Shown: positions 6,369 to 47,666 of the stretch, one piece after another
How positions within the stretch are numbered: position 1 is the stretch's first letter
How the letters are laid out: every line of letters starts with the position of its first letter
The notes under the pieces: model-generated
Told to the model about the DNA's origin: nothing
Databases searched by the model: none
The model's input: the letters and a program-made list of their open reading frames with translations, nothing else
Source of the DNA: an uncultured bacterium
GTDB lineage: Bacteria > Patescibacteriota > Minisyncoccia > Phycocordibacterales > UBA6065
Assembly: GCA_966243015.1 (NCBI GenBank)
Contig: CBIMES010000001.1
Location: 50,598-114,597, forward strand
Direction: 5' to 3'
Length of the DNA stretch: 64,000 bases
Program-made: the position numbers and the translations under genes

Positions 6369-6416
6369 GAGAGGCTTATATTATATGGGTTTTACGGGGT
6401 TTGGTCAAACGATCTG

Positions 6417-6444
6417 ATTGACTTTTGGCCTGTTTCGTGTATAC
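6417..6444 (+). promoter_or_regulatory. sigma70-like promoter (TTGACT-16-TATACT) for the RRM gene; about 85-nt 5' UTR
   Basis: The hexamers and the 16-nt spacing are read directly from the sequence. Confidence 0.5.
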
Positions 6445-6531
6445 TTAACCCATCGTTAGTTTCTCGGAGGAAAGACAAGTTTCTGCCAAAGGGAAGGACG
6501 GCGATAGTTACAAGTTTAGTTAAGAATCACA

Positions 6532-6825
6532 ATGGCAAAGAAACTTTACGTCGGTAATCTCTCGTACGGTACCACCTCTGAGACCCTCAAGGCTGGTTTC
6601 GAGGCAGCGGGTGCTGTTATCTCAGCATCTGTTCTCACCGACAAGATGACCGGCCGATCACGAGGCTTCGGCTTCGTCGAGATGGAGGACGCGGACGCTG
6701 ACAAGGCGATCGCTATGTTCGATGGTAAGAACTTCGAGGGCCGAGACATCAAGGTCAACGAGGCTCGCCCTATGGAGGAGCGACCACGACGCGACTTCAA
6801 CGGTCCAGCACGAAGGAGCTTCTAA
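6532..6825 (+). CDS. RNA-binding protein with RRM (RNP-1/RNP-2) domain
   Basis: LYVGNLSY (RNP-2) and RGFGFVEM (RNP-1) are present; an Arg-rich tail follows. Confidence 0.9.
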   Translation: MAKKLYVGNLSYGTTSETLKAGFEAAGAVISASVLTDKMTGRSRGFGFVEMEDADADKAIAMFDGKNFEGRDIKVNEARPMEERPRRDFNGPARRSF

Positions 6826-6849
6826 ATGAACCCTTCGGTCTAACCGACG

Positions 6850-6882
6850 AAAGGCCGCCCTTACGGGCGGCCTTTCGCTTTG
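6850..6882 (+). terminator. rho-independent terminator (GGCCGCCC-TTAC-GGGCGGCC plus U-tract)
   Basis: GC hairpin followed by TTTCGCTTTG, immediately after the RRM gene. Confidence 0.7.
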
Positions 6883-6931
6883 CAAAAAAGCCGCGCTGGT
6901 GTAGTCTTCTGATGAAACCTTCTTTATATAC

Positions 6932-7343: not shown

Positions 7344-7376
7344 AAAAAAAGGCTCACCACGGTGAGCCTTTTGTTA
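7344..7376. terminator. bidirectional terminator AAAAAAAGGCTCAC-CACG-GTGAGCCTTTT (member of a recurring GGCTCAC hairpin set)
   Basis: 7-bp GC stem with an A-tract before and a T-tract after. The same stem recurs at 30552..30569 and 44785..44802. Confidence 0.65.
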
Positions 7377-30384: not shown

Positions 30385-30549
30385 ATGAAGATAATCAAAA
30401 TAGTGCATCTGACCTTGGCGTCTGTATCGGGCCTGCTCCTTATCTCGTATGGAGGGGTAGATGACAGTCCCGGTGCGCAAGGCATAGGGCTCTTGACCAT
30501 TTTGGCGAGCGTGTTTATCGTCTTTCACATCCTCGTTTCTAAGAAATAA
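30385..30549 (+). CDS. small two-helix membrane protein (54 aa) not in the ORF track
   Basis: Perfect TATAAT lies 8 nt upstream of the ATG. Product MKIIKIVHLTLASVSGLLLISYGG..LLTILASVFIVFHILVSKK; terminator hairpin GGCTCA-CTCCAC-TGAGCC plus T-tract immediately after the stop. Confidence 0.45.
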   Translation: MKIIKIVHLTLASVSGLLLISYGGVDDSPGAQGIGLLTILASVFIVFHILVSKK

Positions 30550-30689
30550 AAGGCTCACTCCACTGAGCCTTTTATTCCGGCTTAGCCACGGGCCCTTTCG
30601 GTACCTTGTCTCACAAGGTACCGACGGGCTATACTGAAAAGGCAAAAGGGTAGTACTATAGAAGGGAACCAATTCATAACATCACATTC

Positions 30690-36305: not shown

Positions 36306-36431
36306 GTGATTGAGGTTAGTGGGGTAAATTATAGCAAGTAAGCGCGGTGTCCGAACCTTGATTAGGTTACAGTCCCGTGCTGAAACTCGGTATACGACAT
36401 GCTCCAGCGTTCTTGGGAGATAAGAAGGCGT

Positions 36432-36533
36432 CCCGCGCACACCTTTTCAAAACCCTATCGAAGCGCGACTGGCGCTGAGATGAGAAAATCCCCAGTGAGG
36501 GGATTTTCGTGGTTTTGAAAAGGTGTGCGCGGG
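36432..36533. repeat. palindromic element E3: 23-bp perfect inverted repeat (CCCGCGCACACCTTTTCAAAACC / GGTTTTGAAAAGGTGTGCGCGGG) enclosing a 56-nt core related to E1/E2
   Basis: Core CTATCGAAGCGCGACTGGCGCTGAGATGAGAAAATCCCCAGTGAGGGGATTTTCGT shares the GCGCGACyGGCGC block and an A/T-rich inner hairpin (AAAATCCCC-AGTGA-GGGGATTTT) with E1. It lies directly 3' of ftsZ. Confidence 0.65.
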
Positions 36534-36537
36534 GAGA

Positions 36538-37740
36538 CTATTTCTTTCTCCTCAAGAACGCTGGAACCGCGCCCCAGTCGTCGTCCTCTGAGTCGATGGT
36601 AGGGATGGCCGCCTTCTTATCCTCGGGCGCTGGCTTTGGCTCCGGCTTCTCCTCCTTTGGGGCTGGTGCTGGCGGAGGGGTCACGCTGTTGTGAATCTTG
36701 CCCTTCGGAGCCTCCTCCTTCTGCTCTGGGGCCGATGATGAAGAGAAGAGGGACTTGCTGCGGACGGGTGCCGCGACCTGAGGGGCGTCGCCGAATCCGG
36801 ACGCGATGACGGTGATGCGCATCTCGCCCTTCTTGATCTTCTCGTCGCGGACGGTACCGAAGATGACCTTCGCGTTAGGGTCGATGGACTCGGTGATGAT
36901 CTTCGCGGCGTCCTGGATCTCGAACATGGTGACGTCGTCGCCTCCCGCGATGGAGAAGAGTACGCCCTTGGCGCCCGCGATCGATACGTCGAGGAGGGGC
37001 GAGGAGATCGCCATCTTCGCGGCGTCCTCGGCTCGTTTCTCGCCGGTGGCGAATCCGATGCCCATGAGAGCGGTTCCCGTGTTCTCGAGGACCGAGCGGA
37101 TGTCGGCGAAGTCGATGTTGATGATACCTGGGGTGGTGATGAGGTCAGAGATTCCCTCGACGGCCTGCTTGAGGACCTCGTCGCAGAGCGCGAAAGCGGC
37201 CTTCGCCGTGGTGTTGCGGTCGATATTGGTGAGGAGTCGGTCGTTCGGGATGACGATGATCGCGTCCACCTCCTTGCGAAGGTTCTCGAGAGCCTGCTCC
37301 GCGAGGCGCATGCGCTGGATGCCCTCGAAGAAGAACGGCTTGGTGACGACGGCGACAGTGAGTGCGCCGAGCTCCTTCGCGGTCTTTGCGATGACGGGTG
37401 CCGCGCCCGATCCGGTTCCGCCTCCCATGCCTCCCGAGACGAACACCATGTCTGCGCCCTTGAGGGCCTCCTGGAGCTCCTCCTTGGTCTCCTCGACTGC
37501 GCGTCGTCCGAGATCGGGGTTCATTCCCGTTCCGAGTCCCTTGGTGAGGTTCTTGCCCACGTGGATCTTCTTCTTGGCGAGGGAGTGATGGAGGTCCTGC
37601 GCGTCTGTGTTGACTGCGATAAAGTCCACGCCCTTAACCTTGGAGTTGATCATGTGGTTGAGGGTGTTCTTTCCGGAACCGCCCGCTCCCACGACTTTGA
37701 TGCGTGCGAACGTCTCTACTTCGGGAACGATGTTTGGCAT
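36538..37740 (-). CDS. ftsZ: cell division protein FtsZ
   Basis: GGGTGSGAAPVIA tubulin signature, T7 loop, C-terminal Pro/Ala/Glu-rich linker. Confidence 0.95.
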   Translation of the reverse strand: MPNIVPEVETFARIKVVGAGGSGKNTLNHMINSKVKGVDFIAVNTDAQDLHHSLAKKKIHVGKNLTKGLGTGMNPDLGRRAVEETKEELQEALKGADMVFVSGGMGGGTGSGAAPVIAKTAKELGALTVAVVTKPFFFEGIQRMRLAEQALENLRKEVDAIIVIPNDRLLTNIDRNTTAKAAFALCDEVLKQAVEGISDLITTPGIINIDFADIRSVLENTGTALMGIGFATGEKRAEDAAKMAISSPLLDVSIAGAKGVLFSIAGGDDVTMFEIQDAAKIITESIDPNAKVIFGTVRDEKIKKGEMRITVIASGFGDAPQVAAPVRSKSLFSSSSAPEQKEEAPKGKIHNSVTPPPAPAPKEEKPEPKPAPEDKKAAIPTIDSEDDDWGAVPAFLRRKK

Positions 37741-43234: not shown

Positions 43235-43416
43235 GGTGGTGAAAAGCGGATGTCTCGTGATGAGCCAGTCCGCTTTTTTCCGCCATGATCGTATATGTTA
43301 ACTCTGCGTATATTATACACCCAAAATGGGCGTCTTGTCAATGTGGGAGAGGGGTCGAAAGAGGGCTTACCGAGGCCCTTTTCTGGCATGTCCACATGGC
43401 GTATACTGTGCCTACT

Positions 43417-44049
43417 ATGATCATCATTGGACTTGGAAACCCAGGGGCTGAATACGAGGGCACGCGACACAACGCGGGTCGCGAGGCGGTAATGAAGTTT
43501 GCGACGAAGATGAAGTTCGACGACTTCAAGGCGGACAAGAAGTCGCAGGCGCTCGTCGTGAAGGGGACGGTCGAGAAGGGCAAGGCGACCCTCGTCCTTC
43601 CCGAGACGTTTATGAACAAGTCCGGCGTCTCCGCCGGTGTGTTCGCCAAGACCCCGAAGAAGGCGAAGGACCCTAACGGCAAGATTATTAAGGCCTTTCC
43701 CGATCTCATCGTCGTGCACGACGACCTCGATATTCCGCTCGGCAAGGCGAAGATGTCCTGGGACAAGAGCGCGGGCGGACACAAGGGCGTTCAGTCCATC
43801 ATCAAGGCCGTCGGCACCCAGGCGTTCTTCCGTATCCGCATCGGTATCTCTCCCGCAAAAGCCAATGGCCAGGTGAAGAAGATTGACCATGACACCATCA
43901 TCGACAACTTCATCGTCGCCGACTTCAAGCCGAAGGAGGCCGAGGAGCTCAAGAAGGTCATCAAGAAGGTTGTCGACTGCCTCGAGCTCGCCGTCTCTGA
44001 CTCTCCGGAGCGTGCTATGAGCGAGTATAACGCGGAGTTCAGCAAATAA
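43417..44049 (+). CDS. pth: peptidyl-tRNA hydrolase
   Basis: IIGLGNPGAEYEGTRHNAGR (catalytic His), VVHDDLDIPLGK, GHKGV. Start is the internal ATG with TATACT 9 nt upstream. Confidence 0.85.
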   Translation: MIIIGLGNPGAEYEGTRHNAGREAVMKFATKMKFDDFKADKKSQALVVKGTVEKGKATLVLPETFMNKSGVSAGVFAKTPKKAKDPNGKIIKAFPDLIVVHDDLDIPLGKAKMSWDKSAGGHKGVQSIIKAVGTQAFFRIRIGISPAKANGQVKKIDHDTIIDNFIVADFKPKEAEELKKVIKKVVDCLELAVSDSPERAMSEYNAEFSK

Positions 44050-44107: not shown

Positions 44108-44326
44108 ATGGATCCTATTCTTCTCTTCTACGTCTACGACGCTGTCGCTCTCGCGTGTTTCCTTCTCGGTCTCTATCTCATTGCTCGTGGCGGGCATGTT
44201 GGCAAGCTCGCTGGCGTGCTGTTTCTCACGGTGGCGCTAGCCTCATGCACCCAGTCGGCGCGTCTCGCTCACAAGGAGGCGTCGAAGCACATACCTATAC
44301 CCGGGTTTGACTCTCCTGGGAGGTAA
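44108..44326 (+). CDS. small membrane protein (72 aa, two TM)
   Basis: Hydrophobic helices; a strong terminator (GGCGCTTCC-GTAA-GGAAGCGCC plus T8) at 44335..44369 follows directly. Confidence 0.5.
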   Translation: MDPILLFYVYDAVALACFLLGLYLIARGGHVGKLAGVLFLTVALASCTQSARLAHKEASKHIPIPGFDSPGR

Positions 44327-44334
44327 CCAAAGCA

Positions 44335-44369
44335 AAAGGCGCTTCCGTAAGGAAGCGCCGTTTTTTTTG
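44335..44369 (+). terminator. rho-independent terminator with T8 tract
   Basis: Seen directly in the sequence. Confidence 0.75.
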
Positions 44370-44784
44370 CGAGCATGCGCAAGGAACAAAGGGGTGGGGA
44401 CGGGGCGGTCTCGCGTGCGCCCCGTCCCACGGCGATAGTTTTTGTTTGTCCGCCGTGACGAGTCTCGAATGTGTGTACCAGCAAGCCGTTTTGTTCCGCT
44501 CGGACTTGCCAGAGCATCGTTCTGGCTCTCGGGTTCGCCGAACCATCCTGGCCTTGGCCGCCTCCGTGGCGGCATTGGCTCAACCTTTCGGGCCTGGTAG
44601 CGTATGTGTGAGGTGGGCTCTGAGGCCTCAATCCCGCAATTCCATGTATGACCCTGCCTCTGTGCGGGCTTTCGGGCTGGAATCACTCGGCTCCTATTCG
44701 GAATTTCGAGATCTTTGTTCCGTCCATAGTCCATCATACGCCCGATGCGCCTGCGGTCAATCGCCGCCGGTGCGCAACGTAAAA

Positions 44785-44828
44785 GGCTCACCGAAGTGAG
44801 CCTTTTATTGCGGCCTTGTGAGGCCTTT
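44785..44828 (-). terminator. tandem terminator hairpins downstream of rpsA (GGCCT-CACA-AGGCC then GGCTCAC-TTCG-GTGAGCC plus T4)
   Basis: Two hairpins between the rpsA stop (44831) and the orphan region; the second is a GGCTCAC-family hairpin. Confidence 0.6.
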
Positions 44829-44830
44829 TA

Positions 44831-45931
44831 TTACTTCTTGTCGCCTACGTACGAGAGGGTCATCTTCTGGCTGCCCGCATCGAAGAGGGTGATCTTGAAG
44901 CTGTAGGTCTTGCCGAGCTCGAGGTTCTGGCGGAGCTTCTCCTCAGAGCCGAACTCAGAGACGTGAACGAGACCAGCAATTCCTTCCTCGATAGAAGCGA
45001 GCGCTCCGTGTCGGTTGAACTTGATGATGACGCCCTTGACCTCCATCTCCTTCTTGTACTTCTTGCCTGCCTCTGACCATGGGTTAGGCTTGAGAGCCTT
45101 GATAGAAAGGGAAACCTTTCCGTCCTTGATCTCGATGACGCGGACCTTGACCTTATCGCCTACCTTGAAGCGGGTCTTAGGGTCCTCAACCAGAGCCCAG
45201 TCGATCTCAGAGATGTGCACGAGACCCTCGAGACCCTCGTCGATCTTGACGAAGACACCGAAGTCAACCATGCCGGTAACCTTGCCTTCAACGTCGTCGC
45301 CGACCTTGAACTTGGCGACCTGCTCGGTCTTGTCCTTTGACTCAGAGTTCTTTTCCGAGAAGATGAGCTTGCCCTCCTTAGGGAACGCGCCGATAATCGA
45401 GACCGCGAGCTTGGTGCCGACGAGCTTCTTGAGCTCCTCGAGGATGCGATCCTTGTCGCCGTCCTGCACTCGTGGGTAATGCTCAGGCTTGAGCTGGGAC
45501 GCAGGGAGGAAGCCCTGGATGCCCTGCCACTCGATGATGAGACCTCCCTTGTTGGCCTCCTTGATAGGGAGCTCGAGGATCTTCTTCTCCGCGATAGCCT
45601 GCTCTGCCTCGGTCCAGATGAGGGCCTGACGAGCCTCCTTGAGGGAGAGCTCGATGTAGCCGTCCTTGTTAGACTGGTCGACGATCTTCGCCGCGATCTT
45701 GTCGCCGACGTTGATCTTCTTGATAACGTCTCGGGCGATGATGTACTCGCGACCGTAGATGATGCCGGTTCCGAACGGAGGGAGGTCTACGAAGACGCCC
45801 TTCTTGTCGATGGCGATGACGTTGCCCTCGATCATGTCGCCGACGTTAGGCGGGGTGAGGGTGTCCGCGAGGAACTTGTCCATCACTCCGGCCTTCTTAA
45901 TCTCTTCTGCCATAGTGTAAATGGCCGTCAC
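44831..45931 (-). CDS. rpsA: 30S ribosomal protein S1 (short, 4 S1 domains)
   Basis: Four S1/OB repeats (GNVIAIDKKGVFVDL, IIEWQGIQGFLPASQL, GKVTGMVDFGVFVKI, VKGVIIKFNRHGALASI). Confidence 0.8.
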   Translation of the reverse strand: MTAIYTMAEEIKKAGVMDKFLADTLTPPNVGDMIEGNVIAIDKKGVFVDLPPFGTGIIYGREYIIARDVIKKINVGDKIAAKIVDQSNKDGYIELSLKEARQALIWTEAEQAIAEKKILELPIKEANKGGLIIEWQGIQGFLPASQLKPEHYPRVQDGDKDRILEELKKLVGTKLAVSIIGAFPKEGKLIFSEKNSESKDKTEQVAKFKVGDDVEGKVTGMVDFGVFVKIDEGLEGLVHISEIDWALVEDPKTRFKVGDKVKVRVIEIKDGKVSLSIKALKPNPWSEAGKKYKKEMEVKGVIIKFNRHGALASIEEGIAGLVHVSEFGSEEKLRQNLELGKTYSFKITLFDAGSQKMTLSYVGDKK

Positions 45932-46083: not shown

Positions 46084-46359
46084 TTACGGGACCTTTTCCT
46101 CAAGCCTGACAATGCGTTTCTCGTGGTCCTGCCAGTTGCTTCGCGCGACGACGGTGAGGGATTCGAGGTTTCCTTCGACTCGGGTGAGTCTGGTGTCTAT
46201 GGTGTTGAGTTTCGTTTTAACCTCGGACATGTCGGTCTGAAGGTCATAGAGAGCGGGTTCAATGCTTGTCTTGAATTCGTGCATTTCAGCCTTGAATTCG
46301 TTGAATTCAACCTTGGTTACCATTCTCTCGTTGATATCGTCGAAACCGCGCTTCGTCAT
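46084..46359 (-). CDS. small coiled-coil protein, divergent paralog C of the 4132/11249 family
   Basis: MTKRGFDDINERMVTKVEFNEFKAEM.. aligns with MVTKRFDELEANLRNDFRAEL.. of paralog B. The start is uncertain because the frame stays open upstream. Confidence 0.45.
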   Translation of the reverse strand: MTKRGFDDINERMVTKVEFNEFKAEMHEFKTSIEPALYDLQTDMSEVKTKLNTIDTRLTRVEGNLESLTVVARSNWQDHEKRIVRLEEKVP

Positions 46360-46888
46360 GGTGGCGAGTTCGCCGACGGCATCGTCGACGATGACACGAA
46401 CCTCTCGTATCACCTCCTTGCTGATCTTTTTGCTGAGCTCTCTGCTCAGCTCGGTGCCAAAAGTCACGAGGTCTTTCCTCGTGATGGGGTCGCTGTCGCT
46501 TGTGTGGTGCTTTCTCCTCACGCCTGTAATTGTCGGGCTAAAGGCGATGAAATCCCATGAAATAAAAATCAAAGAGTGCTTTGGGCGAGAGTTTATGACT
46601 TTAGGCAAGCGGTACAAAAGAAAATGGCCGCACCTTGCGGTGCGGCCACGAGAGACCGGCTCGGCCTTTCGGTTGGCTTGGCAGACGTTCGCGTCGGGGG
46701 ACGCGCGGTGCGAGTGGTGGCCTGCATGTCGGCCGGCTCGTCCTCGGCTGCGTTGTTTCTGCCTGATTCGTCTTCCCGTGCTTGGCGCGGGGGGAGTACT
46801 CTGGAATCGCGTTGAATCGGTTTGCGGACCGGCTCGGTGAGCCGCGACCCTCAACCCCGACCGTTGCAAGCGGTCGGTTTGGCCAGTC

Positions 46889-46925
46889 TGCCCGGCGCCG
46901 GGCAGACTCGAGTTTTTCTTTGCCG
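46889..46925 (+). terminator. rho-independent terminator AGTCTGCCCGG-CG-CCGGGCAGACT plus GAGTTTTTCTTTG with no upstream CDS (end of candidate ncRNA)
   Basis: 10-11 bp GC stem plus T-tract on the + strand. Confidence 0.55.
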
Positions 46926-47042
46926 ACAGGCGAGGAACCGTTCCCGCATCTAGGCTACTCCCTGTGCGACGGGTGTCAATAAAGAAAGCGCCCCTTCTTG
47001 TCAATCTAGATGCGGAAAGGGAAATACACTATACTTCTCGGC

Positions 47043-47666
47043 ATGGTAATCACATATCAAGGCGGATACTTCTTCAAGGTACAGTTCGGCGACATAACGC
47101 TCGCCGTCAACCCGATCTCAAAGGACTCGAAGCTCAAGTCGAGCCGCTTCGGCGCGGATGTCGCCCTCGTCTCGGCGAACAACGGTGACATGAACGGCGT
47201 CGACCAGGTGTCGTTCGGCGGCAAGGAGGCTTTTTCCATCACCGGTCCCGGCGAATACGAGATCAAGGACGTTTTCATCAAAGGCTTCGCCTCGGAAACC
47301 AATTATGGGGGAGAAAAGAAGATCAACACCATATATACGGTGCAGCTCGAGAACATGAACCTCTGTTTCCTGGGCGCCCTCTCGACCAAGGACCTGCCAA
47401 CCGAGGCTGACGAGAGCATTGAGTCCATCGACATCCTCTTCGTGCCTGTCAGCTCGGACACGCTTTCGCCTGCCGACGCGTACAAGCTCGCGGTGAAGCT
47501 CGAGCCGAAGCTCATTATCCCGGTGTCCACGGATGCGGCAGCCATCAAGACCTTCCTCAAGGAGGCCGGCGAGGAGGGACAGAAGCCGCAGGACAAGCTC
47601 ACCCTCAAGCGCAAGGACCTCGACGGCAAGGACGCCGACGTCGTCGTGCTCGAGGCTCAGGCCTAG
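47043..47666 (+). CDS. MBL-fold metal-dependent hydrolase-like protein (UPF0173-like)
   Basis: Beta-lactamase-fold pattern (KVQFGDITLAVNP.., DVALVSANNGD.., IDILFVPVSSD). TATACT lies 7 nt upstream of the ATG at 47043. Confidence 0.55.
   Translation: MVITYQGGYFFKVQFGDITLAVNPISKDSKLKSSRFGADVALVSANNGDMNGVDQVSFGGKEAFSITGPGEYEIKDVFIKGFASETNYGGEKKINTIYTVQLENMNLCFLGALSTKDLPTEADESIESIDILFVPVSSDTLSPADAYKLAVKLEPKLIIPVSTDAAAIKTFLKEAGEEGQKPQDKLTLKRKDLDGKDADVVVLEAQA

Follow-up and report, generated by a model that had tools for sequence, protein, structure and literature searches.

Positions 44372-44784 of a 64,000-nucleotide (nt) stretch of DNA (the window) from a Paceibacterota genome of the candidate phyla radiation (CPR/Patescibacteria) were analyzed as a candidate RNA gene. 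This region is part of the 781 nt that separate rpsA (minus strand) from the convergent gene pth (plus strand). It is non-coding, it matches no known RNA family, and its promoter, 5' block, and 3' module are conserved by position among relatives. We consider it likely, from the sequence comparisons below, that the region carries a minus-strand RNA gene that is independently transcribed in the rpsA direction. The best overall explanation, which we hold with about even confidence, would be a lineage-restricted, fast-diverging family of regulatory RNAs outside Rfam. The gene-like architecture is well supported; the same is not true of the expression, structure, and function of the predicted RNA.

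In this explanation, an RNA of ~345-400 nt would be made from a sigma70-type promoter (44760-44733) just past the rpsA terminator. The gene would open with the promoter and a conserved 5' block, continue through an interior that diverges rapidly, and close with a G/C hairpin, a pyrimidine-rich tail, and a terminator shared with the convergent open reading frame (ORF) of 72 amino acids (aa), ORF72. The family would reside next to rpsA in a genus-level clade of Paceibacteria, keeping the promoter position and the hairpin-plus-tail while the bodies change freely, with lengths of ~90-450 nt.

Architecture of the predicted RNA gene

The predicted promoter, TTGACC-16-TATGAT, is of the sigma70 type and has 10 of 12 consensus matches, with the -35 hexamer at 44755-44760 and the -10 hexamer at 44733-44738 (minus strand). 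The strict pattern TTGACN-16/17-TANNNT was found 12 times in the window compared to 2.0 times in shuffled sequences, a six-fold excess, and one of these sites is upstream of a tRNA cluster. The transcript start was placed ~6-8 nt past the -10 hexamer and the end at the U-tract of the 44359-44338 terminator. This gives a predicted non-coding transcript of ~398 nt (44330-44727, minus strand), with ends inferred from the promoter and terminators. A shorter form of ~345 nt, ending past the tail near 44380, is possible.

The predicted RNA begins with the 5' block AUGGACGGAACAAAGAUCUCGAAAUUCCGAAUAGGAGCCGAGUG (44684-44727, minus), in which TGGACG, CTCGAAATYCC, and GCCnAGTG are common to the units of two close relatives, L001 and L091. 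Within the block are the 5' strands of two putative helices: GGAACAAAG (44713-44721, minus) of P0, which would pair with the tail core at 44391-44383, and UCUCGAA (44705-44711, minus) of the long-range helix P1. The 3' strand of P1, UUCGAGA (44463-44469, minus), is 35 nt upstream of the G/C hairpin. A hairpin GGCAAGUCCG-AGCGGAACAAAA-CGGCUUGCUGG is predicted at 44478-44510 (minus), and its loop presents GGAACAAAA, a second sequence complementary to the tail. Immediately 5' of the G/C hairpin is another hairpin, CACGGCG-N16-CGCCGUG (44428-44457, minus). The G/C hairpin itself, which we call the clamp, has 11 bp, GGGACGGGGCG-N10-CGCCCCGUCCC (44397-44428, minus). It is followed by the pyrimidine-rich tail CACCCCUUUGUUCCUUG (44380-44396, minus), which contains the family signature ...UUGUUCUUU... 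and a single C-rich stretch, CCCCACCCC, at 44395-44387 (minus).

An earlier note on this DNA, which flagged the region as a structured non-coding RNA (ncRNA) candidate, had described it as bounded by terminators, and this was confirmed by the hairpins at 44338-44359 (with a plus-strand T-run), 44780-44807, and 44812-44825. The first belongs to a bidirectional intrinsic terminator (44327-44359) that reads GGCGCUUCC-UUAC-GGAAGCGCC + UUUUGCUUUGG on the minus strand and whose plus side is used by ORF72; its hairpin has a 9-bp stem and eight T, directly past ORF72. The second is a 12-bp palindromic hairpin past the rpsA stop (44831), which is considered bidirectional because of its A/T-tract flanks. 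The third has 5 bp and a T-run on the plus-strand side only. The terminator hairpins at 7347-7372, 30545-30576, and 44780-44807 have nearly the same stem, AAAAGGCTCAC...GTGAGCCTTTT, which may represent either a terminator sequence that recurs or a small repeat.

The architecture recurs next to rpsA in relatives

For comparison, 160 related loci (labelled L001 and so on) were recovered, among which the synteny of rpsA, pth, lepB, and hisS-like genes is kept. The rpsA-pth spacer of the relatives ranges from ~15 to ~3000 nt and is mostly 30-160 nt, and the long spacers show no mutual similarity with blastn. The long spacers of L001, L005, L008, L009, L010, L011, and L016, and later those of L091, L093, and L096, were read in the rpsA orientation. 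A common plan recurs on the rpsA strand. The rpsA terminator is followed by a TTGACn-16/17-TAnnnT promoter and a body of 40-450 nt, and the body leads to a G-rich/C-rich hairpin, a pyrimidine-rich tail (core UUGUUCUUU), and a second terminator, of canonical form. At some loci, two or three units follow one another in tandem, each with its own promoter and terminator.

The strict promoter pattern is located 33-84 nt past the rpsA stop in 8 of the 13 related long spacers, compared to a background of 0.078 per kb. The sequences between the hexamers of the relatives' promoters are unrelated. A perfect hairpin followed within 14 nt by TTG[TC]TC[TC]TT was found at nine sites in 1.08 Mb with both strands read. 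All nine lie on the rpsA strand: seven follow rpsA and two (L104/L105) precede it.

A covariance model of the hairpin-plus-tail module (A1/R1) was also used, with R1 built from 10 sequences. R1 scored 39.4 bits at 44374-44429 (minus), the sole match above 17 bits in the window; this score is partly by construction because the window sequence is among the 10 training sequences. Matches outside the training set (L093 with 40.9 bits, L016, L096, L005b, L014, and L004) are just downstream of rpsA and on its strand. Lower-scoring matches elsewhere are ordinary terminators.

We use the term clamp-and-tail for units with a G/C hairpin followed within ~17 nt by UUG(U/C)UC(U/C)UU, and with a sigma70-type promoter at most ~100 nt past the rpsA terminator on the rpsA strand. 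The window has both the hairpin with its motif and the promoter (44760-44733). Independent members are L093, L016/L096, L091, and L104. The last belongs with L105 to more distant Paceibacteria, with S1 proteins 69% identical. At 2000-2240 of L104/L105, a hairpin, a UCCCACUUUUUUGUUCUUUA tail, and a second terminator occur upstream of rpsA on the rpsA strand. This arrangement may mean that it is the S1 gene, and not the rpsA-pth spacer itself, to which the module is linked.

The nearest relatives share a 5' block and a predicted long-range helix

The S1 proteins of L001 and L091 are 93% and 92% identical to that of the window, and these loci have the promoter and the 5' block in common with it. 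The pattern TGGACG-N(2-12)-CTCGAAATYCC turned up in L001, L091, and the window's own strains and nowhere else. The block falls in three different frames in the three sequences and the resulting peptides are unrelated; therefore, the conservation is at the nucleotide level and is not that of a conserved peptide.

In both the window and L091, P1 joins CUCGAA of the block to a UUCGAG that lies just 5' of the G/C hairpin. The L091 helix, GAGCUCGAA/UUCGAGCUC, differs from that of the window by one compensatory U-A to G-C double change, and in L001 an alternative pairing is possible at this place. L091 also has a G/C hairpin at the equivalent place, GGGACGGGAG...CUCCCGUCCC, and the stem GGGACGGG/CCCGTCCC in common with the window. 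One long-range helix and the 3' hairpin are the only structure common to the window and its closest relatives, and the interior is unalignable.

At the 5' end of the window RNA, GGAACAAAG is the predicted partner of the tail core, CUUUGUUCC; the L091 counterpart is GAACGAG/CUUGUUC. Shuffled 5' ends paired equally well with the tail in 4.7% (window) and 1.7% (L091) of cases. In the window RNA, pairing is predicted for the UUUGUUCC core and for the 3' half of CCCCACCCC. Other relatives have short units, and there the tail core is for the most part predicted to be unpaired. As a family-wide feature, tail-to-5'-end pairing was rejected, since it holds only for the window and L091.

The region does not code for protein

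The ORFs inside the region are all rich in Arg, Ser, and Cys (182, 120, and 83 aa on the minus strand; 117, 52, 46, and 44 aa on the plus strand). Their GC fractions at the first, second, and third codon positions (GC1/2/3) are flat at ~0.55-0.66, and codon log-odds are -0.33 to -0.56 in every frame. The neighbors pth (43396-44049, plus), rpsA (44831-45913, minus; an S1-like protein 93% identical to a protein from a Candidatus Paceibacterota metagenome-assembled genome), and a Lactamase_B gene gave ~0.55/0.31-0.37/0.80 and log-odds of +0.50 to +0.65. These values bear out the claim that the region holds no convincing ORF, but only Arg/Ser/Cys-rich frames.

Protein homology, which would have spoken for a gene, was looked for with Pfam, two exhaustive protein searches, and tblastx, and no real homologue was found. 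The region ORFs have no Pfam match. The 182-aa ORF matches itself alone among 5.8 billion proteins, and the 117-aa ORF has no genuine homologue in an exhaustive HMMER search of 1.84 billion representative proteins. Its two HMMER matches are artefacts, with weak 12/33 identities per repeat summed over tandem repeats. A tblastx search of the region against 80 relatives found nothing.

The 182-aa ORF (44243-44791, minus) is annotated by public gene callers on at least seven contigs. These calls, and the presence of AUG or GUG followed by GAC at the predicted 5' end in the three closest genomes, are what could be cited for a protein-coding or degraded gene, either the 182-aa ORF or a short leaderless peptide starting from the AUG at 44727. 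We find such a gene hardly credible. No frame has a codon or GC3 signal or a homologue, the 182-aa ORF extends across the terminator into ORF72, and the putative peptides (14, 33, and >70 aa), which come from three frames, are unrelated. Thus, the region is non-coding, and the 182-aa gene call in public databases is almost certainly a spurious annotation.

Folding and sequence conservation

The earlier note had called the region GC-rich, with several strong perfect hairpins. The enrichment is marginal (GC fraction of 0.598 vs 0.578 for the window), and there is a single perfect hairpin of at least 9 bp within the region. This is the perfect 11-bp hairpin that had been pointed out, GGGACGGGGCG-N10-CGCCCCGTCCC, which sits exactly at 44397-44428. 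A second reported hairpin, GCCGCC-TCCGT-GGCGGC, exists, but it has 6 bp and is at 44557-44573, not 44568-44584. Perfect stems of at least 9 bp occur at ~35 places in the window, compared to 0-8 detections per shuffled window.

Several observations weigh against an RNA gene. The first is folding, which is ordinary for the region. Dinucleotide shuffling of the whole region gives z = -2.3 for the plus strand and -2.0 for the minus strand, and the plus strand folds slightly better (-173 vs -154 kcal/mol). When compared with 154 other 413-nt windows of the same sequence after regression on GC, the residuals are -0.87 (plus) and -0.2 (minus) standard deviations, and 25/154 (plus) and 65/154 (minus) of the background windows are as good or better. 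The predicted transcript (44727-44330) folds at -156.3 kcal/mol with z = -4.28 when the 3' hairpins are included; the 273-nt body without them has z = -1.58, which is no excess. In addition, the tail is predicted to be paired rather than free, with its core paired in the window, L001, and L091. The stem of the module shows double changes in 9 of 11 pairs, a covariation that is partly circular, since the sequences had been selected as hairpins. A minimum free energy outlier at ~36345-36758 was also considered as an RNA gene and was rejected, since two genes adjoin there, with a terminator.

The second concern is conservation. Blastn and nhmmer searches of the 160 related loci found no similarity to the region, even where S1 is 92-93% identical. 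Identity of the interior to L001 and L091 is 25-29%, the random level. Identity of the 5' block is 52-54%, compared to 57-64% at fourfold-degenerate rpsA sites; these values thus give no evidence of purifying selection on the sequence. The match of the 5' block is not significant when searched freely against a database (E = 0.94 and 12), and only its position makes it meaningful. Also, the family is missing from most relatives, whose rpsA-pth spacers are ~15-160 nt, so this is not an essential housekeeping RNA at the rpsA-pth locus. Phage and plasmid collections had no match to the region, and two pattern scans of viral contigs gave only chance matches. Population variation was uninformative, with 0 single-nucleotide polymorphisms in the region across 9 near-identical contigs. 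Runs SRR16817056, SRR16817057, and SRR16817059 and the ENA assemblies ERZ27393303, ERZ27393482, ERZ27393765, ERZ27393901, and ERZ27394105 contain the organism.

These data raise the possibility of a non-functional spacer: a hot spot for indels and rearrangements in which the hairpins are terminators or insulators and the promoter-like site is a relic or a chance occurrence. We regard this as unlikely, while giving it real weight. The variable length (~15 to ~3000 nt) and mutually unrelated contents of the spacers, the divergence of the interior past the neutral benchmark, the unexceptional folding, and the insulator-like 44812-44825 hairpin with its T-run on the plus side only all fit a spacer of this kind. 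It does not account for a near-consensus promoter whose position is kept in 8 of 13 long spacers despite unrelated surroundings, for a specific tail motif past a G/C hairpin almost only at the rpsA locus and on the rpsA strand, or for tandem units that each have their own promoter and terminator.

An improbable alternative is a plus-strand transcript, the long 3' untranslated region or read-through of a pth-ORF72 operon, which would be stopped by the 44780-44825 hairpins. Both boundary hairpins do have plus-side T-runs, and the plus strand is the one that folds slightly better. The strong terminator with eight T directly past ORF72 argues against it, as does the failure to find a plus-strand promoter inside the region, and all features common to the relatives are specific to the rpsA strand.

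An ncRNA gene thus stands as the best explanation, through its promoter, 5' block, and 3' module, while the "structured" part of the original proposal is weakly supported. The support comes from the recurrence of these three elements at the same minus-strand place in relatives and not from the features that drew attention to the region. The sequence is not conserved in relatives, but the minus-strand architecture is conserved by position.

ORF72 and a test of a type I toxin-antitoxin pair

ORF72 (44108-44326, plus) is downstream of pth and outside the RNA gene. It encodes 72 aa with two hydrophobic segments and 62% hydrophobic residues. Counterparts of 61-77 aa are in the same place in L001 (5705-5938, minus), L005, L008, and L011, and L091 has a 159-aa ORF there that is related to that of L001. 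The small ORFs of the relatives are 16-33% identical to ORF72, and an upstream motif, (G/A)UAGG(G/U)U, is similar in four. Neither ORF72 nor its counterparts belong to a Pfam or NCBIfam family. From sequence, the small ORFs past pth look like one fast-evolving family of small membrane proteins.

In the type I pairs par (fst/RNA II), txpA/RatA, and bsrG/SR4, the two genes are convergent and share a bidirectional terminator. ORF72 and the predicted RNA are likewise convergent with a terminator in common, as in par RNA II/fst, RatA/txpA, and SR4/bsrG, so the RNA could be a type I antitoxin with ORF72 as its toxin. Small hydrophobic ORFs at the equivalent position in several relatives agree with this, and the duplex of the tail with the ORF72 ribosome-binding region (-21.7 kcal/mol) ranked second of 127 candidate gene starts in a crude window scan. 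The other tests make an antitoxin very unlikely. In L001, L005, L008, and L011, no cognate pairing was seen (z between -1.1 and +0.7), and the value for the window traces to a G-rich site to which the L001 tails bind just as well. L110 and L094 have the ORF but lack the RNA; L009, L004, L014, and L007 have the RNA but lack the ORF. Complementarity is limited to the shared 22-nt terminator stem, with none extended. No toxin family matches the ORFs, which have 61-77 aa and two hydrophobic segments, and ORF72 is longer than the par, txpA, and bsrG toxins. The type I system was rejected on the co-occurrence and pairing tests.

A second non-coding unit and other sites

A second non-coding unit of ~340 nt, complete from promoter to terminator, was observed at 46612-46979 (minus). 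It is flanked by a Lactamase_B_3-like gene (47010-47666, plus) and a 162-aa coiled-coil gene (46084-46572, minus). The predicted promoter is TTGACA-16-TAGCCT (46979-46952, minus), and the terminator is GGCCGCACC-GCAA-GGUGCGGCC with a U-tract (46649-46615, minus). Its GC1/2/3 values are flat, its fold z is -3.65, and it has no Rfam match.

This unit (46612-46955) is better conserved and has more compensatory changes than the flagged region. With nhmmer it aligns to L091 358-716 over its full length (E = 1.4e-4). The L001 counterpart (2152-2500) has an orthologous promoter and terminator, and the blocks GGCCAAACC, GCGAAUCnGGCAGA, and CUGCCAAGCC are conserved. In an RNAalifold consensus of the three sequences, 25 of the 87 pairs show compensatory changes, and the pairs include a closing helix of long range. 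Paralogy between the flagged RNA and this unit was rejected, as the CAAAGA...CUCGA motif was defined post hoc and is unsupported by BLAST.

Elsewhere in the window, back-to-back strict-consensus promoters (6408-6380, minus; 6418-6445, plus) lie in a 563-nt stretch (6369-6931) without a GC3-positive ORF. Under the same crude GC3 filter, many gaps appear at ~10.5-24.9 kb; these may be genes of atypical composition or further non-coding units.

Possible role of the RNA and 16S-like pieces in relatives

If the RNA is regulatory, its function would lie in the conserved 5' end and hairpin-plus-tail module. We tentatively propose, by analogy with RsaE/RoxS, that the C/U-rich tail acts as a seed in an anti-Shine-Dalgarno-like manner. 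This mechanism is proposed because the 3' end is laid out like that of a C-rich small RNA (sRNA). Alternatively, the tail could be a binding site for a protein. In the long forms (window, L091, and L001), a purine-rich segment close to the 5' end is predicted to pair with the tail and so mask it.

Sense-strand pieces resembling 16S rRNA were observed in the bodies of units downstream of rpsA in L010 (5054-6115), L091 (1973-3128), and L009 (5054-5662). L010 has exact 20-, 19-, and 13-nt matches to positions 413-432, 259-277, and 392-404 of E. coli 16S rRNA, with one 16S-like segment spanning positions 392-432. Smith-Waterman comparison over 16S 243-277, which we take to be helix 11, gave z = 12.8 for L010 and 5.1 for L091. 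The L009 match is marginal (z = 2.9) and near the 790 loop, with GAUUAGAUACC in the loop of the G/C hairpin; L009 and L010 possibly carry a copy of the 790 loop. L091 also has a 23S-like piece (z = 4.9). The rRNA-like pieces are not in 16S order. They may stem from gene conversion, from the decay of an rRNA gene, or from mimicry under selection. The window RNA contains no rRNA-derived sequence (z = 0.2 and 0.3), and neither does that of L001.

A broader idea, which we consider a long shot, is that S1-linked RNAs across Paceibacteria act as mimics of the ribosome or rRNA. The pyrimidine-rich tail resembles the 3' end of 16S rRNA and is placed past a hairpin. By titrating protein S1, other ribosomal proteins, or Shine-Dalgarno sequences, such RNAs could adjust translation in the reduced genomes of this group. 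The units would be downstream of rpsA in the window clade and upstream in L104/L105, with 16S segments in the bodies of several relatives.

CPR/Patescibacteria are mostly uncultured, with tiny genomes and poorly understood regulation, and a limited literature search found no paper on their regulatory RNAs. If the regulatory RNA family is real, its promoter-to-terminator units next to the S1 gene would offer a concrete entry point to riboregulation in the CPR. It would also be a family that outpaces synonymous-site turnover and duplicates in tandem, sometimes with 16S-like pieces.

Comparison with known RNAs

Rfam was searched at the gathering threshold with the window and 18 relatives, and at E up to 10 with 3.3 kb, with 441 nt (lax filters), and with six relatives. 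At the gathering threshold only tRNAs were found in the window, and the rest was sub-threshold and driven by terminators. ARAGORN found 8 tRNAs and no transfer-messenger RNA (tmRNA) in the window. The sub-threshold matches on the minus strand were RsaE (24.5 bits), CC3552, and Sr006, which all align the hairpin, the C/U-rich linker, and the terminator.

The first reading of the region had found no hallmarks of RNase P RNA, tmRNA, or signal recognition particle (SRP) RNA, and the Rfam and ARAGORN searches agree. It had left the choice between a divergent RNA and one of another class; divergent RNase P, tmRNA, or SRP RNA is not supported, and with no Rfam family matched, another class is favored. 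The RNA is similar in length to RNase P RNA and tmRNA, and 44510-44478 (minus) superficially resembles both P4 strands of RNase P (GGCAAGUCCGAGC and ACAAAACGGCUUG). In bacterial RNase P RNA, the P4 strands are set apart by the specificity and catalytic domains. Here, the P4-like strands (GGCAAGUCCG and CGGCUUGC) are 12 nt apart in one simple hairpin, which is the wrong topology. Unlike the housekeeping RNase P, tmRNA, and SRP RNAs, the element is missing at a conserved locus in most relatives. A divergent RNase P, tmRNA, SRP, or 6S RNA is therefore extremely unlikely, and was rejected with no Rfam match at E up to 10 and no ARAGORN tmRNA.

Like RNAs of the 6S/Ms1 type, the window RNA would stand alone, be a few hundred nt long, and have ends that are predicted to pair. 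6S RNA is a rod with a central bubble, whereas the window RNA is predicted to be multibranched, and the window has no 6S or Ms1 match in Rfam. The G/C hairpin of the relative L010 matches the 3' hairpin of the Ms1 model with 18.3 bits, as a GC-rich stem and nothing more.

The closest resemblance in 3' design is to RsaE/RoxS (RF01820), whose 3' part also has a hairpin, a single C/U-rich stretch, and an intrinsic terminator. The window stretch is UCCCCACCCCUUUGUU, compared to the RsaE consensus UCCCAUCCCCUUUGUU. The C-rich regions of RsaE/RoxS pair with G-rich Shine-Dalgarno sequences (PMC4409812). The window RNA falls outside the RsaE family, with 24.5 bits compared to a gathering threshold of 79 and E = 0.45 (3.3 kb) or 0.06 (441 nt). 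RsaE/RoxS is ~100 nt with three or four C-rich stretches and is found in Firmicutes; the window RNA would be ~400 nt with one such stretch, predicted to be paired, and comes from a different phylum. The clamp-and-tail RNA is best filed as a new lineage-restricted sRNA family, absent from Rfam 15.

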